A stretch of DNA of 40,687 bases from a virus (Duplodnaviria; Heunggongvirae; Uroviricota; Caudoviricetes), in IMG/VR virus record IMGVR_UViG_2563366891_000016. One strand, written 5' to 3'. The translations under genes were made by a program, and so were the position numbers. Under the pieces are notes generated by a model. The model was not told where the DNA came from and made no database searches. It worked only from the letters and a program-made list of their open reading frames with translations. Within the stretch, counting starts at the first letter, position 1, and each line of letters opens with the position of its first letter. Positions 3,416 to 40,687 of the stretch are shown here, in pieces.

Positions 3416-4035
3416 TTCACCTCCTGCGGCGGTTCCGGTAGCGGCATCCAGTGAGTTGCTTGCTCAATACCATTACCCGGCTTAATCGTTGCATCTCCGC
3501 GCCGAAAGGTGCTTCCGGTATAGCGTGCGGAGCATATTAGCGGTTCAACCAGAGGGCTATCGAAATTCACCGAAATAAGCACGTTCTGGCCCTTTTCAGG
3601 CATTCGATCACTACAGCTTATCCAACCATCCGGAGTTACCGGAGAGTTGCCCGACAGCTCGTTCAACTTGTAAGTCTGGCTTACAGGTTCGGCACCATTA
3701 AGCATGGCGGCGCGGCAGGCGTTCCAGCCTTCATCAAAGCCGACTATGCCATTATTTAAAGACGGACGAGCATCTGGCACCACCGGCACTGGCTTGGCTA
3801 TATATAGCGGCTGAACATACCAGCCCTTTGATAACCAACTGTCAGCAATGTTTTTACTCCTCGTTATTGCCGGAATACCTAAGCCATTTTCTGAATGCAG
3901 CCATGCCACCGGCTCCTCTTCTAGCGATGCCAGAGCAATTTCATAAGCACGGCGCTCAATATCGTCTCGAACCTCTAGGCTGCTGATTCGTTCTTTGATT
4001 TCTTTAATCAGTTCTTTATTGGTAAATGTGGTCAT
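3412..4035 (-). CDS. Phage protein with DUF551-like C-terminal domain (207 aa)
   Basis: C-terminal WISCSDRMPE...HWMPLPEPP; 4-nt start/stop overlap with the downstream gene. Confidence 0.5.
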   Translation of the reverse strand: MTTFTNKELIKEIKERISSLEVRDDIERRAYEIALASLEEEPVAWLHSENGLGIPAITRSKNIADSWLSKGWYVQPLYIAKPVPVVPDARPSLNNGIVGFDEGWNACRAAMLNGAEPVSQTYKLNELSGNSPVTPDGWISCSDRMPEKGQNVLISVNFDSPLVEPLICSARYTGSTFRRGDATIKPGNGIEQATHWMPLPEPPQEVK

Positions 4036-4397
4036 TATGCTCCAGCCTCCGGCGCTTTTGGCATTACTGCCCAGTGAGTGATATTGAAGTTTTCAAGGTC
4101 CCCGACCTGAAATGTCCACTGCCATTCTCCGGTTTCTTTTTGTCCCCAGGTGTACCAGAGAGAACGCCAGCCAATCAGCCAGCCTTCTCCGTTAGCATCA
4201 AATAACAGAACACTTTCATTTGCTGGTGGCAGTTCAGCTGACACTGGTATTATTTTGTTTTCCAGTGCCGCACATTTAGCTTCAAGCGCGTCGAATTTAC
4301 GTACCAGGTACTCAGCATTTGTTTCATTCACTTTCAGATCTCGCGGTACACATTTCCCGCGAAGAAACCCTTCCATTTCGAAAACATTCATGCGCAT
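4035..4397 (-). CDS. yfdS: YfdS-like phage protein with DUF551-like motif (120 aa)
   Basis: 120 aa, matching the recalled length of CPS-53 YfdS; C-terminal HWAVMPKAPE; overlaps flanking genes. Confidence 0.45.
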   Translation of the reverse strand: MRMNVFEMEGFLRGKCVPRDLKVNETNAEYLVRKFDALEAKCAALENKIIPVSAELPPANESVLLFDANGEGWLIGWRSLWYTWGQKETGEWQWTFQVGDLENFNITHWAVMPKAPEAGA

Positions 4398-4924
4398 TTG
4401 CGTAACTCCGATAACTCGTTAAAACGTTCCATAAACATCCCGTAGGCATGACCCGGTGCCAGTGGAATCACGTTGAACATCTCTGTTGCCGGGATGCCTT
4501 CCAGTACAGGCCAGAAAGAGCCATCATCAAGCCCGAGATCGCGGCGTTCGGTTGCCAGCATGATAAGATCGGCATATTTCACGGGCGTACTCATAACTGG
4601 GGGTAACCCGTATTTCTCACGGATTACGGCGTCAATTTTTTCTTCCATCCGTTTATAGTCAGGAAGAAGGCGTTTCAGTGGAGCGGGAATATCCTGGCAA
4701 TACGCTTCTGTTGCATCATGCATTAACGCTTCAAAAGCAAATTCCTGCGGCACCAGCTGGCTGCAAAGCACCGCATGTTGGGCGACACTGTAGAAGTGAG
4801 AAAGATGACCGGCAAAGCGGCAGATATTTGAAAGGGAAACCGCGATATCGTTAATCACGATGTCGTCTTTATTTATCTTGTCATAATAAAAATGCTTCCC
4901 GGAAAAAGTTTTAATAAATGACAT
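4388..4924 (-). CDS. yfdR: HD-domain phosphohydrolase (YfdR-like, 178 aa from MSFIK start)
   Basis: H...HD metal-binding motif (HAVLCSQLV...EALMHDATE); ATG at 4922-4924 with ggag RBS 7 nt upstream gives 178 aa, the recalled length of CPS-53 YfdR. Confidence 0.55.
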   Translation of the reverse strand: MSFIKTFSGKHFYYDKINKDDIVINDIAVSLSNICRFAGHLSHFYSVAQHAVLCSQLVPQEFAFEALMHDATEAYCQDIPAPLKRLLPDYKRMEEKIDAVIREKYGLPPVMSTPVKYADLIMLATERRDLGLDDGSFWPVLEGIPATEMFNVIPLAPGHAYGMFMERFNELSELRKCA

Positions 4925-5051
4925 TTTGTTCTCCACGTATATGCGCTGCACCGCGCTGAGTTTGGGTAAAAGGAAGCCCTCACCATCCGGTGATTATTGA
5001 GTTAATTACGTTTCCATAAATGCCCCCGCAGGGGCATTTGCAGTAATGAAA

Positions 5052-5876
5052 TCAGGCGGTGAAAGTACCAATAAAGGTTTCTACTTTGCTGTCTTTGAAT
5101 TTCTCAACAAGCAGATCACGAAATTCGTTAGCCATATCTTCCTGCACCGCTTCCAGCTGAATAATGCGCAGAACCAGTACAGGACGATCGCCAGTGATAA
5201 TGCTGAGGCGTAATTTAAACGGACGTTCTTTCAGACCTTCAAACGGAACGCATTTAAATTCAAATGCCACTGGCATAATGTCTTTGGTCTTCGCTTCGAC
5301 AGATTCCATCAGGGAGCGTTTGCCGCTGAAGTCATTATCTTCAAAATCAGCGGTCTGGTTTGCTTCAATCGTGATTTTACGGACTGCCGCAGCCGCTTTT
5401 GTTGCCTGAATAGCGTCACCATTAGCATCAAAGCCCACAAGGTAGTCGGCCCAGTCTTCAATCCATTCTGCCAGTGACTTCTGGGAGTTACGCTCGCCGT
5501 TAACAGACAACAGGGCAGAGAACGGTGCTGTCTTTTTCAGTTTGAGAGTGGCGGTGTTATCTGCGTGACCTGGTTCATCAATAGTACCCAGGTTAAGTAC
5601 ACTGACGGCACGCATATTATCAGCATCGATAAAGCAGCGGGTGCCTTCATCTGCAAGATCTTTAGAATAACGGGTAAAGTCATCGATGCTGGCAGTGGAA
5701 AGCGCACCACGGAAACGGAAGCGATTTAAATTAAATTTTTCCAGATCATGAATGCGGAAATTCTCAGGCAATGCCACAGCATCGGCACCAATCTTACTGA
5801 TAATTTCATTAACACCCTGAGCAGAAATAAGGGCATGGATTTGATTAATTGCGGTTGCGTCTAAGTTCTGAGACAT
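5052..5876 (-). CDS. yfdQ: YfdQ-like protein (DUF2303), 274 aa
   Basis: 274 aa, the recalled length of K-12 CPS-53 YfdQ, in the same position within the yfdP-Q-R-S order. Confidence 0.5.
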
Positions 5877-6547: not shown

Positions 6548-6925
6548 ATGCTGGAGTTCTCACACAGCCAGCAAGGAAACCTAATGAACCAGTTTTATGT
6601 TCACGTTCGTCTGTTTGAAGCAACAGCCGAACAGACCAAAAAATTTGAAGAATTAATGCTTAACTTTCTGTACCAGAAAACAATCAAAGAGTCTGACGAT
6701 AGCTGCTGCAGACTGATTCCAGAGGGATATATCCTCAAAAGCACAATGAACTGCCAACAAATCCTTGATCAAACTTTTTCCATTGCTAACAGTGCTGGTG
6801 TTGACGCAAATATATTTGTCTGCAAATTTGAACAAAGCGTATGCTTACTTCCGTCTGCTTCCTTAGTTGGCAACGATTTTGTTCATCACGATCTTACGCC
6901 TAAGCCCATCAAGCTCGATTCTTAA
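6548..6925 (+). CDS. Opposite-strand hypothetical protein (moron-like); alternative start at 6584 (MNQFYV)
   Basis: AT-rich ORF on the + strand inside a minus-strand operon; 6584 has RBS aagga 7 nt upstream; preceded by long inverted repeats. Confidence 0.4.
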   Translation: MLEFSHSQQGNLMNQFYVHVRLFEATAEQTKKFEELMLNFLYQKTIKESDDSCCRLIPEGYILKSTMNCQQILDQTFSIANSAGVDANIFVCKFEQSVCLLPSASLVGNDFVHHDLTPKPIKLDS

Positions 6926-7506: not shown

Positions 7507-8193
7507 TTACCAAGTGCGCGATGACCAGAATACTCTACCTATAACGTGAATTCTGGAACGCCTATCTTCGAAGGTGAGTATTTCATCTGGATACTCATCT
7601 TTATTGAAACTTCTTAGAATCAGACCACCGTCAGGTAAATTGATCAATATTTTAACTCTAAGTAATACGCCATCACGTATGGCATAAAGATCCCCATCAC
7701 GAATAGGAACCGTTTGGGAAACATCAACAGCAACAAAATCTCCATTGTTAAGTACAGGTAGTAAACTATTGCCCCAAATTTTTACGATCTTTGCATTGGA
7801 GACACATACACCAGCTTTTCTTAAATCAATCCTTCTTAGCGGGAACCAGTCTACAGTTGATTCAACTATTTCAGCCAAACATCCATTACCCGCTGATAAC
7901 TCGACATCTAGGACTGGAATGTTTGCAAAAATGTCAGGATCTAATGCTGTACTTTCAGCCTCCTTTACAACAAGGTCTGGGAAAGACGCGTTATCCTCAA
8001 TGCCCAATTGCAACCACTTTTGAGAAACCCCTAACACTTTAGCAATCTCTTTAATTTTCCGAGGCTGTTGAGTTTCTCCATTCTCGATTTTCGCTACGGA
8101 TTGTTGTGAAAGCCCAATTTTTTCAGCTAGTTGCGCCTGACTCATTCCTGCTTTTTCTCTTTCGCTTTTTAGTCTTTCTGCCAATGTTTTCAC
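7507..8193 (-). CDS. cI: CI-like prophage repressor (HTH plus LexA-like S24 peptidase domain)
   Basis: N-terminal HTH (MSQAQLAEKIGLSQQSVAKIENG) and C-terminal autocleavage-type domain; GTG start with gaggggga RBS; divergent from the cro-like gene. Confidence 0.8.
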   Translation of the reverse strand: MKTLAERLKSEREKAGMSQAQLAEKIGLSQQSVAKIENGETQQPRKIKEIAKVLGVSQKWLQLGIEDNASFPDLVVKEAESTALDPDIFANIPVLDVELSAGNGCLAEIVESTVDWFPLRRIDLRKAGVCVSNAKIVKIWGNSLLPVLNNGDFVAVDVSQTVPIRDGDLYAIRDGVLLRVKILINLPDGGLILRSFNKDEYPDEILTFEDRRSRIHVIGRVFWSSRTW

Positions 8194-8222: not shown

Positions 8223-8317
8223 ACAACTTTATGTTTTGGCTTTCCAACATCTAAAAGTTGTGATAAAAGTTGTTGTAGTTGTATAATCGAAGTTATCAAC
8301 AACTTTACTACTTACAG
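8223..8317. promoter_or_regulatory. Right operator/promoter region (OR with PR/PRM)
   Basis: Inverted copies of ACAACTTT/AAAGTTGT and AAGTTGTTG/CAACAACTT, a tataat -10 and a ttgtga -35 directed toward cro. Confidence 0.5.
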
Positions 8318-10498: not shown

Positions 10499-10987
10499 AT
10501 GAGTCTTTTGAATGACGTTCAGAAATTCATTGAAGCCCATCCGGGGTGTACTTCCGGAGACATTGCGGATGCTTTTGCAGGTTACTCACGGCAGCGCGTT
10601 CTGCAGTCAGCAAGCAAGTTACGTCAGAGTGGGCGTGTGGCTCACCGTTGTGAAGGAGATACACGCAGACATTTCCCACGCCTTACTGAGAGAGCGCAGG
10701 AGCCGGAACCACAACCAGTTCGTGAAACCAGACCTGTGCGCAATTTCTATGTCGGCACTAACGATCCCCGGGTGATTTTGTGCCTGACCCGCCAGGCGGA
10801 AGAACTGGAGTCAAGGGGCTTATACCGTCGTGCTGCAACCGTGTGGATGGCGGCATTCCGTGAAAGCCACTCCCAGCCAGAACGAAACAATTTTCTGGCA
10901 CGTCGTGAGCGGTGCTTACGGAAAAGCAGCAAGCGCGCTGCATCGGGTGAAGAGTGGTATCTGTCAGGGAATTACGTGGGGGCTTAA
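10499..10987 (+). CDS. PerC/ANR-family regulator-like protein
   Basis: Motif EELESRGLYRRAATVWMAAF resembles the recalled PerC signature; start coupled to the O stop; stop overlaps the dam start (TAATG). Confidence 0.4.
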   Translation: MSLLNDVQKFIEAHPGCTSGDIADAFAGYSRQRVLQSASKLRQSGRVAHRCEGDTRRHFPRLTERAQEPEPQPVRETRPVRNFYVGTNDPRVILCLTRQAEELESRGLYRRAATVWMAAFRESHSQPERNNFLARRERCLRKSSKRAASGEEWYLSGNYVGA

Positions 10988-11640
10988 TGAGTAATAAATA
11001 TTGCCGGGCGCTGGTGGAACTGCGGAACAAACCAGCCCATGAACTGAAGGAAGTGGGCGATCAGTGGCGCACGCCGGATAACATTTTCTGGGGAATTAAC
11101 ACCCTGTTTGGCCCGTTTGTCCTGGATCTGTTTACTGACGGTGATAACGCCAAATGTACCGCGTATTACACGGCGGAAGACAACGCGCTGGCGCATGACT
11201 GGTCAGAACGTCTTGCGGAGCTTAAAGGTGCTGCCTTTGGTAATCCCCCATACAGCCGCGCCAGTCAGCATGAGGGGCAATACATCACCGGCATGCGTTA
11301 CATCATGAAACATGCCAGTGCCATGCGTGATAAAGGCGGGCGCTATGTTTTCCTGATCAAAGCTGCCACCAGCGAAGTGTGGTGGCCGGAAGATGCAGAT
11401 CATATTGCTTTTATTCGCGGGCGTATTGGTTTTGAACTGCCTGCCTGGTTTATCCCGAAAGATGAGAAGCAGGTGCCGACAGGCGCTTTCTTCGCTGGTG
11501 CTATTGCTGTTTTCGACAAGACCTGGAAGGGACCGGCAATCAGCTACATCGGGCGCGATGAACTTGAGGCATGTGGTGAGGCGTTTCTGGCGCAGGTTCG
11601 CCAGCAGGCGGAAAAACTGGTCAGGGAGATGGCGGCATGA
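10987..11640 (+). CDS. Phage DNA N6-adenine methyltransferase (Dam-like)
   Basis: GNPPY catalytic motif; ATG overlaps the upstream stop. Confidence 0.7.
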   Translation: MSNKYCRALVELRNKPAHELKEVGDQWRTPDNIFWGINTLFGPFVLDLFTDGDNAKCTAYYTAEDNALAHDWSERLAELKGAAFGNPPYSRASQHEGQYITGMRYIMKHASAMRDKGGRYVFLIKAATSEVWWPEDADHIAFIRGRIGFELPAWFIPKDEKQVPTGAFFAGAIAVFDKTWKGPAISYIGRDELEACGEAFLAQVRQQAEKLVREMAA

Positions 11641-11963
11641 CGACGTTAACTCAATGCCAGCAGCAGGTGCTGGATATGCTGATTTCTTACCAGAAAGAAC
11701 GTGGCTTCCCGCCAACCAATCAGGAGGTGGCAACCATGCTGGGATACCGTTCAGTGAATGCAGCGGTGGAGCATCTTCGCGCACTGGAGAAAAAAGGCGT
11801 CATCACGATAAAGCGTGGCGTGGCCCGGGGGATAACGCTTCATACTGCGATGAAGGACGACGACAGCGAGGCGGTCGGGATTATCCGCTCACTGCTTGCC
11901 GGTGAGGAAAACGCCAGGCTGCGTGCAACCCACTGGTTACATGAGAGGGGCCTGAAAGTATGA
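11637..11963 (+). CDS. LexA-like N-terminal DNA-binding-domain protein (no peptidase domain)
   Basis: 108-aa protein; LTQCQQQVLDMLISYQKERGFPPTNQEVATMLGYRSVNAAVEHLRALEKKGVI resembles the LexA winged-helix DNA-binding domain. Confidence 0.55.
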   Translation: MTTLTQCQQQVLDMLISYQKERGFPPTNQEVATMLGYRSVNAAVEHLRALEKKGVITIKRGVARGITLHTAMKDDDSEAVGIIRSLLAGEENARLRATHWLHERGLKV

Positions 11964-12349
11964 AGCTGATCCTTCCTTTCCCGCCCAGTGTGAACACGTA
12001 CTGGCGACACCCCAACAAAGGGGCATTTGCTGGTAAGAGCCTGATAAGCGAGGCGGGGCGAAAATTTCAGAGCGCGGCGTGCGCAGCAATAGTTGAGCAG
12101 TTACGTCGTCTGCCGAAATCAACGTCGGCACCTGCTTCAGTGGAGATCGTGTTGTTTCCTCCGGATAACCGGATCCGCGATCTGGACAACTATAACAAGG
12201 CGCTGTTTGACGCCCTGACCCACGCGGGTGTGTGGGAAGACGACAGACAGGTGAAAAGAATGCTGGTGGAGTGGGGACCGGTTATCCCGAAAGGGAAGGT
12301 CGAGATCACTATCAGTAAGTATGAGAAACCGGCGGGTGCAGCCGCCTGA
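11960..12349 (+). CDS. rusA: RusA Holliday junction resolvase
   Basis: 129-aa protein with PFPPSVNTYW and DLDNYNKALFDAL motifs. Confidence 0.8.
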   Translation: MKLILPFPPSVNTYWRHPNKGAFAGKSLISEAGRKFQSAACAAIVEQLRRLPKSTSAPASVEIVLFPPDNRIRDLDNYNKALFDALTHAGVWEDDRQVKRMLVEWGPVIPKGKVEITISKYEKPAGAAA

Positions 12350-12368: not shown

Positions 12369-13178
12369 ATGAATAATCTGATGGTCATTGATGGTATTGA
12401 AGTTCGTCGTGATGCTTATGGGCGTTACAGCCTGAATGATCTGCATCGCGCAGCAGTAGCATCTGGTGCAAATGCCAGAACCAAGGAGCCAGGAAAGTTT
12501 CTTTCCAGCCAACAAACTGTTGAGCTTGTTCATGAATTGACCAACACCCAGAATTTGGGTGTTGGCCCGGTGAGTGTGATTCATGGGGGAAATGAACGGG
12601 GAACGTATGTCTGCAAGGAACTGGTGTATGCCTATGCAATGTGGATCAGCCCGTCATTCCATCTGAAGGTGATCCGTACTTTCGATATGGTAACCAGCGC
12701 ACCGGAAAAATTATCCGGACAGGCTGCTGACAAGATGCAGGCTGGTGTGATCCTGCTGGACTTTATGCGCCGGGAATTAAACCTGTCTAACTCATCAGTG
12801 CTTGGTGCCTGTCAGAAACTCCAGGAGGCTGTTGGCTTACCGAATCTGGCACCGCGCTATGCCATTGATGCTCCTGCTGATGCACACGATGGCTCAAGCC
12901 GCCCCACGCTGTCACTGAGTGCACTGCTGAAGCAGTATGGTATCCGCCTGACAGCTAATCAGGCATATCACCAGATGGCGAAGCTGGGGATCGTTGAACA
13001 ACGCGAACGATACAGCCGTACCGCGATTAACAACATCAAAAAATTCTGGTCGCTGACCGCGAAAGGCTGCATGTTCGGCAAGAACATCACCAGTCCTGCA
13101 AATCCGCGCGAGACGCAGCCGCATTTCTTCGAATCCCGATTCCCTGAGCTGTTAAAGCTGCTCGATACCGTTCATTGA
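12369..13178 (+). CDS. KilA-N domain protein (putative antirepressor-like)
   Basis: N-terminal IDGIEVRRDAYGRYSLNDLHRAA is a KilA-N-like signature; strong RBS aagaggag. Confidence 0.55.
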   Translation: MNNLMVIDGIEVRRDAYGRYSLNDLHRAAVASGANARTKEPGKFLSSQQTVELVHELTNTQNLGVGPVSVIHGGNERGTYVCKELVYAYAMWISPSFHLKVIRTFDMVTSAPEKLSGQAADKMQAGVILLDFMRRELNLSNSSVLGACQKLQEAVGLPNLAPRYAIDAPADAHDGSSRPTLSLSALLKQYGIRLTANQAYHQMAKLGIVEQRERYSRTAINNIKKFWSLTAKGCMFGKNITSPANPRETQPHFFESRFPELLKLLDTVH

Positions 13179-13179
13179 G

Positions 13180-14175
13180 GTGACCGTGAGAGCACTACTG
13201 ACCCCTGAAATTGCCCCGCGTATGGGGATCGTATTGTTCAGACCAGGTTCAGAGCTGATGCCCTTGTTTATGCAGGGGCGTGTCCTGCTGGAGCCTGAGC
13301 CGGAACGTTATTCATCTTTCGCCAGTGGTGCCGTTCCGGCGGCATCACAACCGCTGGCGGATGATCCTGCCGTTCGGGCCGTGTTCCGCAATGAGGCAGT
13401 GATCCGTCGTGCTGGTGGCGTGGAATGTCTTGAAAGCTGGTTACTTCGTGAAAAAGGCTGCCAGTGGCCTCATTCCGACTGGCACAGCGAGAACATGACA
13501 ACAATGCGACACGCTCCGGGCGCAATCCGTCTGTGCTGGCACTGCGATAACCAGCTGCGCGATCAGTTCACGGAACGGCTGGAATCAATGGCAACGGATA
13601 ACTGTGCCCGCTGGGTGTTGTCTGTTGTGCGTCGGGATCTCGGTTTTGATGACAGTCATGTTGTGACAATGCCGGAACTGTGCTGGTGGCTGATTCGTAA
13701 TGATCTGGCGGATGCCTTACCGGAAAGTGCAGCCCGTAAGGCACTGAGATTACCGAAGCCTGTTGTGCCGTCTGTTACCCGGGAAAGTGACCTTGTGCCT
13801 TCGGTTCCTGCCACCAGCATCATCCAGGATAAGGCGAAAAAGGTGCTGGCGCTGAAAGTGGATCCGGAGTCGCCGGAGTCTTTTATGTTACGCCCAAAAC
13901 GTCGCCGCTGGGTTAATGAAAAGTACACGCGCTGGGTTAAGACACAGCCGTGTGCATGTTGTGGAAAGCCTGCTGATGATCCCCACCACCTGATAGGTCA
14001 CGGTCAGGGGGGAATGGGTACAAAAGCGCATGACCTCTTTGTGTTGCCTTTGTGCAGAAAGCATCACGACGAGCTGCATGCGGATACCGTGGCATTTGAA
14101 GAGAAGTATGGCTCCCAGTTGGAGCTGATATTTCGTTTTATCGATCGTGCGCTGGCAACAGGCGTACTGGCGTAA
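13180..14175 (+). CDS. DUF968-like prophage protein with C-terminal Cys/His-rich motif
   Basis: C-terminal CACCGKPADDPHHLIGHG...LCRKHHDELH; in the nin-region position before Q; start codon uncertain. Confidence 0.4.
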   Translation: MTVRALLTPEIAPRMGIVLFRPGSELMPLFMQGRVLLEPEPERYSSFASGAVPAASQPLADDPAVRAVFRNEAVIRRAGGVECLESWLLREKGCQWPHSDWHSENMTTMRHAPGAIRLCWHCDNQLRDQFTERLESMATDNCARWVLSVVRRDLGFDDSHVVTMPELCWWLIRNDLADALPESAARKALRLPKPVVPSVTRESDLVPSVPATSIIQDKAKKVLALKVDPESPESFMLRPKRRRWVNEKYTRWVKTQPCACCGKPADDPHHLIGHGQGGMGTKAHDLFVLPLCRKHHDELHADTVAFEEKYGSQLELIFRFIDRALATGVLA

Positions 14176-14188
14176 GTGGAGAACGAGC

Positions 14189-14941
14189 ATGAACCTTGAA
14201 GCCTTACCGAAATATTACTCCCCGAAATCTCCAAAACTGAGCGATGATGCACCGGCGACAGGCTCTGGTGGTTTAACAATTACGGATGTGATGGCTGCGC
14301 AGGGGATGGTGCAGTCGAAAGCACCGCTTGGGTTTGCCTTATTCCTGGCAAAAGTTGGTGTTCAGGATCCTCAGTTTGCGATTGAAGGTCTGCTCAATTA
14401 CGCGATGGCACTGGATAACCCGACATTGAATAAATTGAGTGAAGAAACCCGGCTACAGATCATTCCTTACCTTGTGAATTTTGCCTTTGCTGATTATTCC
14501 AGGTCTGCGGCAAGTAAGGCTCGCTGTGAGCATTGTGCAGGTACGGGATTTCATAATGTATTGCGCGAAGTGGTGAAACACTCCAGAAGCGGGGAGTCTG
14601 TTATCAAGGAAGAGTGGGTGAAGGAACTATGTCAGCATTGTCATGGTAAGGGAGAAGTCAGCACAGCGTGCAGAGGGTGTAAGGGTAAAGGTATTGTCCT
14701 GGATGAAAAAAGGACCCGGCTTCATGGCACGCCTGTTTATAAGATTTGTGGGCGTTGCAATGGAAACCGGTTTAGCCGTTTACCAACCACACTGGCGCGG
14801 TGTCATGTCCAGAAGCTGGTACCAGCCCTGACTGATTATCAGTGGTACAAAGGATATGCAGATGTCATTGATAAACTGGTGACAAAGTGCTGGCAGGAAG
14901 AAGCATATGCTGAGGCGCAATTAAGAAAAGTGACGAGATAA
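14189..14941 (+). CDS. Late antitermination protein Q-like (zinc-finger repeats)
   Basis: Last early gene, directly upstream of a promoter-plus-terminator leader and the lysis cassette; repeated CxxCxGxG motifs; ATG at 14189 with ggag RBS. Confidence 0.55.
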   Translation: MNLEALPKYYSPKSPKLSDDAPATGSGGLTITDVMAAQGMVQSKAPLGFALFLAKVGVQDPQFAIEGLLNYAMALDNPTLNKLSEETRLQIIPYLVNFAFADYSRSAASKARCEHCAGTGFHNVLREVVKHSRSGESVIKEEWVKELCQHCHGKGEVSTACRGCKGKGIVLDEKRTRLHGTPVYKICGRCNGNRFSRLPTTLARCHVQKLVPALTDYQWYKGYADVIDKLVTKCWQEEAYAEAQLRKVTR

Positions 14942-33769: not shown

Positions 33770-34344
33770 CAAACGATGATTACATCCGTCTGTTGTCGGC
33801 ACTGTTGCCCCCCGGTCCGGCGTGGTCAGCCAGCGATCCGGCGATTGCCGGTGCGGCACCGTCATTAACCCGCGTTCATCAGCGTGCGGATGCCCTGATG
33901 CGGGAGCTGGATCCGCGCACCACCACCGAACTGATAAACCGCTGGGAGCGTCTGTGCGGCCTGCCGGATGAATGTATTCCGGCAGGGACACAGACCCTTC
34001 GCCAGCGTCAGCAACGACTGGATGCGAAGGTTAACCTGGCGGGCGGCATCAATGAGGATTTTTACCTTGCACAGCTTGCTGCCCTGGGCAGACCAGACGC
34101 CACCATCACGCGATACGACAAAAGCACGTTCACCTGCTCATCGGCCTGTACTGACGCGGTGAATGCGCCGGAATGGCGGTATTACTGGCAGGTCAACATG
34201 CCAGCCGCCACCAACACCACCTGGATGACATGTGGCGATCCCTGTGATTCCGCACTGCGTATCTGGGGCGACACCGTTGTCGAGTGTGTGCTTAACAAAC
34301 TCTGCCCGTCGCATACCTACGTAATTTTTAAATATCCGGAGTAA
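33760..34344 (+). CDS. Tail protein (Mu gp48-like)
   Basis: 194 aa between baseplate J and the tail fiber. Confidence 0.55.
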
Positions 34345-35783: not shown

Positions 35784-36830
35784 TCATATTAAAGCTTTTC
35801 GTAAAAGTGTCTTGCCGATTAAAACACCTCTTCGCTCTACAAGCTTGTGCGCAAAATAACAAACTATAAATAACAATAATAATATTTGAATGTTACTATT
35901 GATGTATTTAATTCCGATTTTATTAACTACTAATAACAAAGAGTCCCAAATCCAGTTATGAAATAAGTACACAGCATAAGTCATTTCAGATAGCAAATTG
36001 CATGCTTTGGATTCAATGAATCTATCTTTAAATAACCACGAACAAAGAAAAATAACAGTTCCTGTGAATGCGTAGTTGTAGTGCCCCCAGAATGGGTTTA
36101 TTTTTTCAATGAGAGATAAATGAAGATAGAACATAGTTACGATGGATATTAAAGCAACAATCCGATTAACTAACTTATGCTCTGTAAGGTACACTACTAC
36201 ACCTATAAACAAAAATGGCGTATACAAGGTGAAGTAAGCATTATGAAAATCCTTCGCTACAGGGAAAGGATTAATGGTGGATATAAATAATGATATAAAA
36301 AGTAGTAGAACTGTTAAAACGTTTCCTTTATTTATGAGTCCGACTTTTTTAACCAAACCCATAAACACATAGAACAGCATTTCTATTCTTAACGTCCATT
36401 CAACACCAGCCAATGAAAGAGGTGTGTTAAAGAAATCGCCTATAAGCAATAATCTAGGTATTATTATGCTCAGAGGTGGAATGTTTCCACCATTATAGTA
36501 TTGGATCAACATTTCAGCTAAAACAGCAAAAATATAGAGTGGGTATATTCTAAATATTCTTTTTAAATAAAATTCAAAAGTTGCTTCTTTTTGTAGTACG
36601 TGGGTGATGATGTACCCTGAAACAAGAAAGAAGATCACAACCCCCATTGCACCACCGAAACTGGCATCTGCTAGTAATCCGTAAAAAAGCCTCAGTGTAA
36701 AGTGGTTACTTGGATCGTTCGCCAACGAAGATAAATCTTTGTTGAACTTATGACCTAACACCACAAGGGAGAACGCAATTACACGCATGTAATCTAAAAA
36801 AAGAATTCGACGATTGTTCATGATTTTCAT
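35784..36830 (-). CDS. Acyltransferase family 3 integral membrane protein (O-antigen acetyltransferase-like)
   Basis: AT-rich gene; polytopic membrane protein with FLDYMRVIAFSLVVLGH near the N-terminus (OafA/Oac-type conserved R and H); sits between tail genes and the integrase, as O-antigen modification genes do in Sf6/SfV-type phages. Confidence 0.7.
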   Translation of the reverse strand: MKIMNNRRILFLDYMRVIAFSLVVLGHKFNKDLSSLANDPSNHFTLRLFYGLLADASFGGAMGVVIFFLVSGYIITHVLQKEATFEFYLKRIFRIYPLYIFAVLAEMLIQYYNGGNIPPLSIIIPRLLLIGDFFNTPLSLAGVEWTLRIEMLFYVFMGLVKKVGLINKGNVLTVLLLFISLFISTINPFPVAKDFHNAYFTLYTPFLFIGVVVYLTEHKLVNRIVALISIVTMFYLHLSLIEKINPFWGHYNYAFTGTVIFLCSWLFKDRFIESKACNLLSEMTYAVYLFHNWIWDSLLLVVNKIGIKYINSNIQILLLLFIVCYFAHKLVERRGVLIGKTLLRKALI

Positions 36831-37777: not shown

Positions 37778-38026
37778 TTAGTGAACAAACCACTCGTCAG
37801 CAGATTCCCAGGTATCTTTCAGAGTCTCCTGAACAAAAGTTTTTACAGAATCCTTATCTGCGGTGCGTGTAACAGAAAGGCCATCGTTGCTGGTGGCTTT
37901 TACGATCACCTCTACATCATCATAACGTTTACTGATGCGTCGGGTTAATTCTTCCTTTAACGCGTCCACAGCACCGGTTGGCATTTTAGTCATTTTTTCT
38001 TTGGCTATGCAGATTTCAATACGCAT
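37778..38026 (-). CDS. DinI-like protein
   Basis: 82 aa with MRIEICIAK start and [10 protein letters not shown] end, matching the DinI family pattern. Confidence 0.65.
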
Positions 38027-38087
38027 AAAAGTCCCTCTGTACTGTGTTTGTATACAGTGTTATTTTTAACTGTATGGATAAACAGTG

Positions 38088-39185
38088 TCAAGAGGTCTTA
38101 TTTCTGCTCCTTTGGAGCTCTTCAAAACGATTATGTAAAGATTTCGGATACAGTTCGGTATATACCTGCCATAGCACGTTTAATGAACGATGCCCTGTAA
38201 CTTGGGCGACTTCCTCAATACTAAAACCAGCCTCAAATAAGCGACTTGCCCCTTCTCTACGCAAATCATGGTATCGCAGATCTTTAATACCTAATTTGCT
38301 TCTTACCCTCTGAAATCCCGCAGTAACAGAAGTGCTGTTATATGGAAAAATGAATTCCGATTTTTGGGGCTGTCGTTGGACGATATCCCAGGCTTCCCCA
38401 AGCAAGGCTACTTTCATGTGGTTGCCTTCCTTTTTGCGTGGATCTTTCCTGTCTCTTACGAGTATAGATTTTTGTTCTTGGTCGAGATCTTCCCATCGTA
38501 ACCGGCATACTTCTCCGATTCGCATACAGGACCACACAGAAAATTTGAGGATATCAACGAACGGAATTTTTGAGCATTTATGAGTAGATCGTTGTTGAAG
38601 GCCTTCAATGAGCATGTCCAGTTCATCAGATGCTGGTCTACGATTACGACGGTTTGATTTACCAATCAAACCAAGTTTAAGTAGATATGGACGAGCGCTT
38701 TTCGCTGGGTTTGATGTGTAATTAATTCCGTATACAGGTTTGGCTGCATCCAGAACACTGCCAAGATAACTAACATCGTGGCTGACTGTTGCTGGACCTG
38801 CACCAGCGTTGTTTCTTAGCCTGCAATGTTCAATTACGTCATTTTCGGTCAGTTCGGATAGTTTGATCGCGGAGATGTCACTATCCATAAGCAGTTCCAG
38901 CACATATCTTTTAGTACGGCCTGCTTTACCTCCGGCATTTGGGTCATTTAAATATTTGTGTAGTAAGTCACGGACTGTAAGTCCGTCAACTGCATTTGAT
39001 GATGGAATGCCATATAGATCTAATTCCATCACTTTCTGTGTACCCCATGTTTTGGCATGGGCATGTTTAGGGAATGTTTTGCTTTCCCTGTAAGTGATAA
39101 CACCTTTTTCTTTGATAATCACATTACAGCGATAGCGTGGTGTGCCATCGGATTTTAGTCGTTTCTCTATGTTATAGTACGCCAT
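38088..39185 (-). CDS. int: Tyrosine site-specific integrase (dusA-associated type)
   Basis: 365-aa protein with a candidate catalytic R...HxxR...Y arrangement (RIGE, HDLRR, C-terminal Y); encoded directly next to attR and the phage-supplied dusA 5' end. Confidence 0.85.
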   Translation of the reverse strand: MAYYNIEKRLKSDGTPRYRCNVIIKEKGVITYRESKTFPKHAHAKTWGTQKVMELDLYGIPSSNAVDGLTVRDLLHKYLNDPNAGGKAGRTKRYVLELLMDSDISAIKLSELTENDVIEHCRLRNNAGAGPATVSHDVSYLGSVLDAAKPVYGINYTSNPAKSARPYLLKLGLIGKSNRRNRRPASDELDMLIEGLQQRSTHKCSKIPFVDILKFSVWSCMRIGEVCRLRWEDLDQEQKSILVRDRKDPRKKEGNHMKVALLGEAWDIVQRQPQKSEFIFPYNSTSVTAGFQRVRSKLGIKDLRYHDLRREGASRLFEAGFSIEEVAQVTGHRSLNVLWQVYTELYPKSLHNRFEELQRSRNKTS

Positions 39186-39273: not shown

Positions 39274-40311
39274 ATGCACGATAATCCTGAAACACAGAAA
39301 ACTAATCAAACCAGCGTGATGCCTGAAAAAACTGGCGCTTACTGGAGTTCCCGGTTTAGCATTGCTCCTATGCTCGACTGGACGGACAGACATTGCCGCT
39401 ATTTCTTGCGTCTGCTTTCCCGCAATACGTTGCTGTATACCGAAATGGTGACTACAGGGGCGATTATTCACGGTAAAGGTGATTACCTGGCGTACAGTGA
39501 AGAAGAACATCCGGTAGCATTGCAACTGGGCGGTAGCGATCCGGCGGCGCTGGCGCAGTGTGCAAAGCTGGCAGAAGCGCGCGGATATGATGAGATCAAC
39601 CTGAATGTCGGCTGCCCGTCTGACCGGGTGCAGAACGGCATGTTTGGGGCGTGTCTGATGGGTAATGCGCAGCTGGTTGCCGACTGCGTGAAAGCGATGC
39701 GCGATGTGGTGTCGATTCCGGTGACGGTGAAAACGCGTATTGGCATCGACGACCAGGACAGCTATGAATTTCTCTGCGATTTCATCAACACCGTTTCCGG
39801 CAAAGGCGAGTGTGAGATGTTCATCATCCACGCACGTAAAGCCTGGCTTTCGGGGTTAAGCCCGAAAGAAAACCGTGAAATCCCGCCGCTCGATTATCCG
39901 CGTGTGTATCAACTGAAGCGTGACTTTCCGCATCTGACAATGTCGATTAACGGTGGCATCAAGTCGCTGGAAGAGGCTAAAGCGCATTTGCAACATATGG
40001 ATGGCGTGATGGTCGGGCGCGAAGCGTATCAGAATCCGGGTATTCTGGCGGCGGTAGACCGAGAGATCTTTGGTTCCTCGGATACCGATGCCGATCCGGT
40101 GGCGGTAGTGCGCGCCATGTATCCGTACATTGAGCGTGAACTCAGCCAGGGGACGTATCTTGGCCATATTACCCGGCATATGCTGGGCTTGTTCCAGGGT
40201 ATTCCTGGCGCGCGGCAGTGGCGGCGTTATTTAAGTGAAAATGCCCATAAAGCGGGTGCAGACATTAATGTGCTGGAACACGCGCTCAAACTGGTGGCGG
40301 ATAAGCGTTAA
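39274..40311 (+). CDS. dusA: tRNA-dihydrouridine synthase A, with phage-supplied 5' end
   Basis: 345-aa ORF with the DusA TIM-barrel sequence as recalled ([13 protein letters not shown] ... NLNVGCPS ... VKTRIG); the first ~35 codons belong to the prophage arm. Confidence 0.9.
39320..39377 (+). other. attR crossover region within the dusA 5' end
   Basis: Identical blocks shared with attL (atgcctgaaaaaactg, atgctcga); homology ends at 39377 on this side and at 1423 on the attL side. Confidence 0.55.
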
Positions 40312-40340
40312 CTTTTCACCAAAAAATAGTCAAATTCACC

Positions 40341-40369
40341 ACGCCCTGCGCACCGTCGCGGGGCGTTTT
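40341..40369 (+). terminator. Intrinsic terminator after dusA
   Basis: Stem acgccctgcg/cgcggggcgt (one mismatch) followed by tttt. Confidence 0.5.
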
Positions 40370-40393
40370 GCTGTTAAATCAATAGATTATTTT

Positions 40394-40408
40394 TGGCATG
40401 ATTCTTGT
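40394..40408 (+). promoter_or_regulatory. Sigma-54-type promoter-like element upstream of pspG
   Basis: TGGCAT-N5-TTGT resembles the -24/-12 consensus TGGCAC-N5-TTGC, about 37 bp before the pspG ATG. Confidence 0.4.
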
Positions 40409-40444
40409 AATGCCAGCAAGAGATTTCATATTTGGGAGAGCATC

Positions 40445-40687
40445 ATGCTGGAACTACTTTTTGTGATTGGCTTTTTTGTCATGTTGATGGTCACCGGCGT
40501 TTCGTTGCTGGGCATTATCGCCGCGCTGGTTGTGGCGACGGCCATTATGTTCCTCGGCGGTATGCTGGCATTGATGATTAAGTTGCTGCCGTGGTTACTC
40601 CTGGCGATTGCGGTGGTGTGGGTTATTAAGGCGATTAAAGCACCAAAAGTGCCGAAATATCAGCGTTATGACCGCTGGCGTTACTAA
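40445..40687 (+). CDS. pspG: Phage shock protein G (80 aa inner-membrane protein)
   Basis: ATG at 40445 with gggagag RBS; 80-aa hydrophobic protein MLELLFVIGFFVML..., immediately downstream of dusA. The 150-aa track ORF is an upstream overextension. Confidence 0.8.
   Translation: MLELLFVIGFFVMLMVTGVSLLGIIAALVVATAIMFLGGMLALMIKLLPWLLLAIAVVWVIKAIKAPKVPKYQRYDRWRY

Follow-up and report, generated by a model that had tools for sequence, protein, structure and literature searches.

The stretch of DNA considered here (IMG/VR virus record IMGVR_UViG_2563366891_000016, 40,687 nucleotides, hereafter the window) corresponds to an SfV-like lambdoid prophage (head of HK97 type, tail of Mu type) bounded by a DUF2713 gene (1-957) and dusA (39274-40311). 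In its nin region, with the gene of the DNA methyltransferase Dam upstream and that of the Holliday-junction resolvase RusA downstream, lies a short delayed-early gene whose 108-amino-acid product has the winged-helix domain of the SOS repressor LexA and lacks its autocleavage domain, just as an initial annotation of the sequence had described it; gene and product are here called LexA-like. The ATG start, preceded by the Shine-Dalgarno sequence GGGAGA, overlaps the stop codon of Dam (ATGA, 11637-11640) and the stop overlaps the start of RusA (ATGA, 11960-11963), the gene being translationally coupled between its two neighbours.

Residues 1-65 of the protein match the Pfam profile LexA_DNA_bind (PF01726) from end to end (positions 1-65 of 65, E = 2.9e-19, 69 bits for a cutoff of 23.7) and residues 1-108, C-terminal tail included, match phrog_362 (positions 1-106 of 106, E = 1.1e-59). 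Peptidase_S24 (PF00717) is not matched by Pfam in the 108-residue protein, and the NCBIfam lexA equivalog TIGR00498 is matched over positions 1-91 of 203 with 70.6 bits, under its cutoff of 110.95. Thus, the protein is a member of PF01726 and of PHROG 362 and not a LexA in the equivalog sense, since an S24 domain, a conserved cleavage site and a score above the cutoff were all looked for and none was found. The AlphaFold2 model (predicted local distance difference test, pLDDT, 78.5) displays the LexA topology, i.e., three helices and a two-stranded wing between residues 6 and 68; its top Foldseek match in the PDB is the LexA-operator complex 3JSO, with a root-mean-square deviation of 1.5 Å over 67 residues and 51% identity, all the best PDB fold matches are LexA and a PDB sequence search concurs, so that the structure prediction, from which a different fold might have emerged, returned that of LexA. 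The wing residues R64, G65 and I66 of Escherichia coli LexA are kept. Host LexA (TIGR00498; PDB 3JSO and 1LEA) shares this N-terminal fold over ~67 residues and has in addition an S24 domain (Ser119/Lys156) that serves both dimerisation and self-cleavage stimulated by activated RecA (RecA*), whereas the LexA-like protein has in its place a 35-residue two-helix tail. PHROG 362 ("LexA family protein") is thus a family already annotated by homology, apparently uncharacterised as to function: a full-text literature search for an experimental study of the LexA-like phage protein found none, and a "bully phage" preprint credits to Cro the effect that it describes for phage 1720a-02, a carrier of the gene.

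The resemblance extends to the residues that read the operator. The contacts of helix III, made in E. coli LexA by Ser39, Asn41, Ala42, Glu44 and Glu45 (PMC3091678), are kept by the window protein at four of the five positions (S39, N41, A42 and E45), the fifth having changed from E44 to V44. A genome scan with the single LexA-like protein yielded seven loci, four of which (L005-L008) contain genuine betaproteobacterial lexA; these encode full-length LexA, with the S24 domain present and Ala-Gly, Ser119 and Lys156 retained, and their residues 39-46, SVNAAVEH, are identical to those of the window protein, V40 and V44 included. Tandem CTGT-N8-ACAG boxes stand in front of a two-gene unit ending in lexA in L006 and L008, while in L005 and L007 the tandem boxes are found 0.7-1.2 kb upstream of lexA. 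As judged by sequence identity, the recognition helix of the window protein is therefore of a type found in genuine LexA repressors that have boxes of the E. coli type at their loci. The free N-terminal domain of LexA still binds and represses SOS promoters and, for this reason, the N-terminal fragment must be cleared by ClpXP (PMC10584840). As to the unit shared by L006 (5456-6609) and L008 (5393-6603), both Betaproteobacteria metagenome-assembled genomes, it consists of the tandem boxes, a gene for a putative membrane protein of 140-157 amino acids and lexA, and is apparently an autoregulated two-gene lexA operon.

The place of the LexA C-terminal domain is taken, according to the alignments, by a conserved two-helix tail that represents a gained feature. 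Its local pLDDT is 86-88, the preceding linker (residues 71-74) being of low confidence, and its hydrophobic pattern (I82, L86, L87, A93, A97, W100, L101 and G105) is kept in homologs with 37-66% identity, A97 and L101 being invariant. It is unlikely that a 28-residue amphipathic helix-turn-helix could exist as a stable monomeric domain, and the hairpin probably supplies the dimerisation of the protein. In the window allele the Ala-Gly at residues 88-89 aligns with the LexA cleavage site (LLAGE vs VAAGE); the tail was accordingly considered as a cleavage-site mimic, an idea ruled out because Ala-Gly is not conserved across the homologs, being AN or AK in close relatives, while distant ones have ER, TR, SG, DD, AE or AC. 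Therefore, the tail is not the remnant of a cleavage site.

A profile search of 1.8 billion representatives returned short proteins of 104-135 amino acids matching through the tail at 37-49% identity, the named members coming from Cronobacter, Kosakonia, Enterobacter, Cedecea, Klebsiella, Salmonella and Citrobacter; every tail-bearing homolog is from Enterobacteriaceae, i.e., from hosts having the same SOS box. Many proteins of the representative library, 140-230 amino acids long, consist instead of two tandem LexA DNA-binding stretches without S24 (P0128, P0129, P0134, P0138, P0140, P0141, P0149, P0158 and others) and possibly represent single-chain pseudo-dimers, another way round the missing LexA dimerisation domain.

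Among 5426 complete E. coli genomes, 2233 (41%) carry the 327-bp gene at ≥95% identity, with up to four copies each; it also occurs in 50 phage records, those of Stx2a, Stx2c and Stx2k (Shiga toxin) phages, SfII, SfIV, SfV, mEp460, cdtI and 1720a-02 among them, where it is annotated as "unknown", "LexA family", "LexA-like protein" or "transcriptional repressor". The selection acting on it was estimated from 157 copies in the fetched loci, 153 of which are intact and ungapped and represent 87 alleles: the ratio of nonsynonymous to synonymous polymorphism (pN/pS) amounts to 0.12 for the whole gene, with 0.035 in residues 1-69 and 0.25 in the tail; residues 38-48, which cover the SVNAAVEH motif, are invariant, and a stop codon is found inside a single allele, at residue 107. 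The frameshifted copies (P0023, P0092, P0098, P0024 and P0034; L023 9319-10269) form Dam::LexA-like fusion reading frames or have scrambled internal segments, and presumably reflect decay in cryptic prophages or sequencing errors.

The timing of expression can be deduced from the structure of the operon. A promoter scan placed a pR-like promoter (TTGTGA-18-TATAAT) in front of the rightward operon and found nothing comparable directly upstream of 11637, and the plus-strand genes abut or overlap from cro through the gene of the Q antiterminator (14147-14941). A dam promoter annotated in SfV, from which dam and the LexA-like gene could have been transcribed independently, was discarded as weak, its -35 element not being conserved in the window. 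Given its position in the pR operon and the lack of a promoter of its own, the LexA-like product is expected only after induction or infection; the gene is, as far as the operon structure tells, a delayed-early (nin) gene with a lytic-cycle product and is probably not expressed in the lysogen. The true immunity repressor of the prophage is a CI with an S24 domain, flanked by operator-like repeats and facing a cro-like gene; since the prophage has this S24-type CI of its own, the LexA-like protein is not the immunity repressor. Most related prophages likewise have their own S24-type CI, the repressor of the Enterobacter/Cedecea locus L016 being of the helix-turn-helix-only type and the available stretch of the Klebsiella variicola locus L018 being without an immunity region. 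The usual gene order is replication gene, (PerC), (Dam), LexA-like, (67-amino-acid open reading frame, orf67), RusA, (KilA-N or Rha/ANT), DUF968 and Q, and the nin-region setting upstream of RusA/DUF968/Q recurs in Citrobacter, Cronobacter, Enterobacter, Cedecea, Klebsiella and Kosakonia loci; RusA follows the LexA-like gene directly, past orf67 or past one opposite-strand reading frame in all the related loci examined except L018, which has the gene without RusA.

Palindromes resembling LexA boxes, for which a search of the prophage had been proposed, do exist in the window. CTGT-N8-ACAG is observed three times for an expectation of 0.5 and, when spacings from N0 to N20 were considered in both orientations, only N8 rose above the shuffled sequences, owing to the boxes of a dinI-like gene; CTGT half-sites at a non-canonical spacing, such as another dimer geometry would read, were thus set aside, no spacing other than N8 being enriched. 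With a weight matrix built from twenty canonical E. coli operators of the literature, only two sites of the window exceed 12 bits, namely the tandem boxes of the dinI-like gene, with 21.6 and 21.4 bits, the background in shuffled sequence being 0.007 sites of at least 20 bits per 40 kb. Both are located between the stop of the integrase and the start of the dinI-like gene, where the dinI promoter is expected; homologs of this gene are annotated as DinI and in the VT1-Sakai record a LexA site is annotated at the corresponding position. The third CTGT-N8-ACAG match (6611-6626) scores below 12 bits, lies within a plus-strand reading frame and is probably due to chance; this frame (6548-6925, +, 125 amino acids) is inside the leftward early region and has no Pfam match.

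The initial annotation had also placed a DinI-like gene at the far end of the prophage, where it is indeed present (PF06183), and had seen in it a possible partner reinforcing the LexA-like protein. The latter role finds less support: since the SOS boxes front the DinI-like gene, this is better regarded as a candidate target, and its association with the LexA-like gene, which common ancestry confounds, is a loose one, a dinI module being present in at least 29 of the 50 phage records that carry the LexA-like gene and at least 31 records having dinI without it.

Boxes of at least 20 bits are present in 53 of 80 related viral loci, and some of their positions recur, as counted over two partly overlapping sets of 80 viral loci. 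In 54 loci, and in SfV, a box occupies codons 3-9 of a DNA methyltransferase gene downstream of Q; this box scores 22.5 bits and is conserved in phages of E. coli, Shigella and Kosakonia, and the gene, situated between Q and the lysis genes, is missing from the window prophage. In 49 IMG/VR loci a box lies within the coding region of an alternative cI allele (XRE/S24), ~220 nucleotides from the cI start, with the near-perfect sequence TACTGTTTTTACATACAGTA or TACTGTTTTTATATACAGTA (25.8-27.2 bits). In 28 IMG/VR loci the box is intergenic, right after RusA and upstream of a KilA-N gene, as illustrated by the 22-bit box at L023 10765-10784, where the nin region is a variant of that of the window, an arrangement which suggests that the KilA-N gene behind it could be LexA-controlled and perhaps antirepressor-like; in the window the KilA-N gene (12369-13178) starts 19 bp past RusA and no box lies between the two.

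A more direct connection between box and LexA-like gene is offered by the aforementioned loci L018 and L016, representatives of two divergent lineages. In the former a TTGAAC-17-TATACT promoter has a 27-bit box over its -10 element and is followed by dinI, an 85-amino-acid GTG-initiated reading frame, the LexA-like gene, orf67, DUF968 and Q; in the latter a TTGCAA-17-AATAAT promoter and a 20.6-bit box are followed by a homologous small reading frame, the LexA-like gene, orf67, RusA, DUF968 and Q. The presence of an SOS box at a sigma-70-like promoter of the LexA-like operon permits a negative autoregulation like that of lexA. The layout is reminiscent of the Gifsy prophages, which have a LexA-controlled operon with dinI, the antirepressor gene gftA and irsA, the dinI-irsA region being conserved and its deletion leaving Gifsy induction unchanged (Lemire et al. 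2011, PMC3121763). The order in L018 and L016 is SOS box, (dinI), small reading frame, LexA-like, phrog_1212 reading frame, nuclease and Q, and the Gifsy-2 counterpart is dinI, gftA, irsA, phrog_1212 reading frame, NinG and Q, the phrog_1212 member being common to both; unlike these phages, the window has its gene in the pR operon, flanked by Dam and RusA. IrsA (STM1020), considered as the same protein, is a DUF1367 (PF07105) member with no significant alignment to the LexA-like protein, and the likeness is positional only. The slot of GftA, upstream of the LexA-like gene, is occupied by the protein of ~85 amino acids (phrog_1813, GTG start; L018 5808-6062 and L016 5713-5958), in which no homology to GftA is detectable; it may be an antirepressor, the L016 repressor having no S24 domain. 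Directly upstream of the SOS-box promoter, L016 also carries a moron (3863-5232, -) with an RNase A-like toxin (PF18431) and a CdiI_2-like immunity gene.

What could be the function of such a protein? The view that we favor, albeit tentatively, is that the gene encodes a LexA surrogate insensitive to RecA* that would re-occupy SOS boxes during lytic growth. Made from the pR delayed-early (nin) transcript only after induction or infection, the protein would read with its winged-helix domain the CTGT half-site of host LexA, and its C-terminal hairpin, acting as a dimerisation element, would allow two domains to sit on one CTGT-N8-ACAG box. Lacking the S24 catalytic domain and a conserved Ala-Gly site, it should escape inactivation by activated RecA, so that LexA-controlled promoters could be re-closed while host LexA is depleted. 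The phage target in the window would be the tandem boxes of the dinI-like gene, those in the relatives would be the boxes before the KilA-N gene, at the DNA methyltransferase and inside cI, and the SOS promoters of the host would presumably be covered as well; in an operon of the L016 type the lexA-like negative autoregulation would result in a pulse. Possible, and rather more doubtful, is the scenario in its full extent, namely that the lambdoid phages of ~40% of E. coli strains, with the Stx2a, Stx2c and Stx2k phages and the serotype-converting phages of Shigella among them, encode a RecA*-proof surrogate, dimerising by a private hairpin, that re-closes the SOS regulon after commitment to lysis, thereby capping SOS mutagenesis, silencing LexA-controlled competitors and resetting the SOS-box promoters of the phage, and acting as a pulse generator in the SOS-controlled induction operon of Klebsiella/Cedecea phages. 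The competitors silenced would be antirepressor-type prophages, colicin lysis genes and SOS-induced toxins.

Several observations weigh against this surrogate function. Within the protein, R28 of E. coli LexA has become N28. Within the family, helix III varies at positions 42-46 (NTIAGH in Citrobacter, NAATDM in Cronobacter, NAVLLH in Klebsiella and NTVFIH in Salmonella), the lineages with a diverged helix live in hosts sharing the E. coli SOS box, and the L018 protein, which stands behind the best SOS box, is one of those with a diverged helix III. In the loci of Citrobacter, Cronobacter and Enterobacter the 6 kb to each side of the gene are free of SOS boxes, and strong SOS boxes together with dinI are found in lambdoid phages that have no LexA-like gene (Gifsy-2 and many Stx1/Stx2a phages). 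Finally, in at least five viral contigs with ~98% identical flanks the LexA-like reading frame is precisely absent, the Dam stop being joined to the RusA start, and these IMG/VR loci (L126, L150, L160, L166 and L175) represent natural knock-outs. In light of this precise absence from near-identical phages, combined with strong purifying selection, the gene is to be regarded as a selected yet accessory cassette and, unlike host lexA, it is phage-borne, dispensable and located in a lytic operon. Since helix III is not uniform family-wide, mimicry of LexA at the SOS box cannot be assumed for every member, and the variation of the helix, the box-less loci and the boxes of gene-less phages are what would be expected if at least part of the family had private operators.

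Indeed, the precedent of the tectivirus GIL01 of Bacillus thuringiensis leads to an alternative in which the LexA-like protein would be a phage-specific transcription factor that uses the LexA fold on an operator of its own to activate or repress a phage promoter, e.g., that of late or accessory genes. GIL01 gp6 is likewise a phage-borne LexA DNA-binding domain without S24, encoded in the early operon of an SOS-wired phage (Fornelos et al. 2018, PMC6182141), and it binds a palindrome distinct from the SOS box, GaCACAnnTGTGaC, and activates the late promoter (PMC6182141), a case that, gp6 being the sole phage protein of this LexA N-terminal type to have been characterised, also speaks against the surrogate. 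In the same sense, the helix diversifies between lineages of the family whereas genuine LexA fragments are uniform, as typically seen in phage regulators that have operators of their own, the gene is always located a few genes upstream of Q, and several of the related loci are without a nearby box. The two proteins nevertheless differ: gp6, with its 66 amino acids, ends right after the wing, so that the conserved two-helix tail is found only in the LexA-like protein, and its helix III has departed from that of LexA (SHKTAHRYL, K38 standing where LexA has N41, with K, T and R in place of N41, A42 and E45), while the LexA-like protein, which comes from Gram-negative lambdoid phages, keeps the LexA-type helix. 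BLASTP finds no alignment between them at E ≤ 100, and MAFFT aligns them with 33% identity over 66 residues. Furthermore, helix III of the window lineage is that of real LexA proteins having CTGT-N8-ACAG at their loci, no other CTGT/ACAG spacing is enriched in the window, and the cassette brings no cis site with it, its absence joining Dam straight to RusA. On balance a private operator appears unlikely for the window protein, even if it retains appreciable weight, and the LexA-like protein is probably of the same kind as gp6, representing a different variant, presumably of opposite regulatory sign.

It might also be imagined that the protein acts mainly by protein contacts, the tail or linker binding host LexA, RecA* or DinI and so modulating cleavage or the activity of the filament, with DNA binding being secondary. 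GIL01 gp7, DinI and plasmid PsiB are likewise small SOS tuners of mobile elements, which commonly encode SOS modulators, the linker and tail do align with the cleavage-site region of LexA, the prophage has a dinI-like gene as well, and in L018 dinI lies upstream of the LexA-like gene. However, gp7, DinI and PsiB target the LexA or RecA protein and are devoid of a LexA DNA-binding domain, whereas in the LexA-like protein this domain is the most constrained part (pN/pS 0.035 vs 0.25 for the tail), the conservation of the tail concerns hydrophobic core positions and no surface motif, and the Ala-Gly dipeptide varies among homologs; this mode of action is accordingly deemed improbable. Somewhat more remote still is a function without transcriptional role, as a DNA-targeting accessory of the RusA and DUF968/HNH recombination and nuclease genes: the order LexA-like, (orf67), RusA, DUF968, Q is kept across genera and the gene overlaps RusA by stop and start, but intact RusA-DUF968-Q blocks exist without the LexA-like gene, L018 has the latter without RusA, adjacencies in the nin region are typical of mosaic phage operons, and the recognition helix is the sequence-specific one of LexA, not a structure-specific DNA-binding module. 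That the gene is a decaying, functionless remnant of a captured lexA, as its dispensability and the frameshifted or Dam-fused copies (P0024, P0034, P0023 and P0092) might hint, is very hard to reconcile with a pN/pS of 0.12, with 153 of 157 copies intact and ungapped, with a stop in one of 87 alleles, at residue 107, and with an architecture maintained down to 37% identity across six genera, in which the tail was gained and conserved.

The surrogate function envisaged for the LexA-like protein has its closest parallel in the N-terminal fragment of LexA and in the Ind- alleles such as lexA3, in that a module that RecA* cannot remove would keep SOS promoters repressed; lexA3 prevents LexA-dependent prophage induction (PMC3121763). 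The natural LexA fragment is cleared by ClpXP via signals exposed by cleavage (PMC10584840), whereas the LexA-like protein ends with ...GLKV after its helical hairpin. The proposal of the initial annotation, that the protein might occupy SOS boxes without being cleavable and so modulate the SOS response or prophage induction, is partly supported by the whole of these data.

That a phage carries a fragment of LexA is in itself not surprising. If SOS boxes were occupied, however, a very common prophage gene would turn out to encode a naturally uncleavable SOS repressor that comes on with induction, with a bearing on the duration and strength of the SOS response in induced lysogens and thereby on mutagenesis and antibiotic tolerance, on the biology of Shiga-toxin phages and on the rivalry of co-resident prophages and colicin plasmids that need LexA cleavage. 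It would be the second case of a phage redeploying the LexA DNA-binding domain, mechanistically opposite to GIL01 gp6, and it would provide a compact natural tool, a 108-amino-acid equivalent of LexA(Ind-); should the operator be private instead, the protein would show how a phage re-specifies a domain of a global regulator of the host. The gene is worth following up in view of its occurrence in 41% of the E. coli genomes, Stx2 phages included, of a recognition helix identical to that of genuine LexA, and of a hypothesis that is clearly testable. The positions of the features are collected in the table.

Table. Features of the LexA-like gene, of its product and of its surroundings in the window, together with SOS boxes of related loci
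Feature	Position	Strand	Remarks
LexA-like gene, LexA N-terminal domain only (PHROG 362)	11637..11963	+	open reading frame, ATG start, 108 amino acids
Winged helix-turn-helix domain, residues 1-69	11637..11843	+	H6-22, H28-35, H40-52, strands 56-59 and 65-68 (AlphaFold2)
Recognition helix III, residues 40-52	11754..11792	+	SVNAAVEH = residues 39-46; from alignment with LexA
C-terminal two-helix tail, residues 75-102	11859..11942	+	H75-87, H93-102; putative dimerisation hairpin
Dam methyltransferase, upstream gene	10954..11640	+	PF05869, E = 1.4e-45
RusA Holliday-junction resolvase, downstream gene	11960..12349	+	PF05866, E = 2.9e-14
CI repressor	7507..8193	-	HTH_3 and Peptidase_S24 (Pfam); operator-like repeats on flanks; faces cro-like gene
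pR-like promoter, head of rightward operon	8258..8287	+	TTGTGA-18-TATAAT; promoter scan
DinI-like gene	37778..38026	-	PF06183, E = 1.5e-19; adjoins integrase at far prophage end; preceded by tandem SOS boxes
SOS box 1, dinI-proximal, candidate target	38040..38059	.	TACTGTGTTTGTATACAGTG; perfect CTGT-N8-ACAG, 21.6 bits
SOS box 2, tandem with box 1, candidate target	38068..38087	.	AACTGTATGGATAAACAGTG; perfect CTGT-N8-ACAG, 21.4 bits
Tyrosine integrase	38088-39185	-	adjoins dusA
Methyltransferase boxes of related loci	L181 (SfV) 34170-34189; L023 14763-14782; L001 18086; L019 (Kosakonia) 10457
cI-internal boxes of related loci	L001 9549-9568; L002 3103-3122		related E. coli and Shigella prophages

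Concerning the remaining features of the window, scans for tRNA genes and Rfam families gave no matches. The Dam start chosen in the RefSeq homolog is an internal ATG. The Q antiterminator (PF03589, 14147-14941, +) matches a DnaJ-type CXXCXGXG zinc finger, and the type of Q (PF03589 or PF06530) differs among the phages that have the LexA-like gene. The flanks of the prophage consist of the DUF2713 gene, which we take to be yjbM of the K-12 map, and of dusA/pspG (39274-40687); on this map the insertion region is only a few genes away from host lexA-dinF, a proximity that is probably coincidental, and the related prophage of L001 abuts dinF-yjbJ-zur. Between the tail-fibre genes and the dinI/integrase end lies an Acyl_transf_3 gene (35784-36830, -) resembling the O-antigen acetylase morons of serotype-converting phages.

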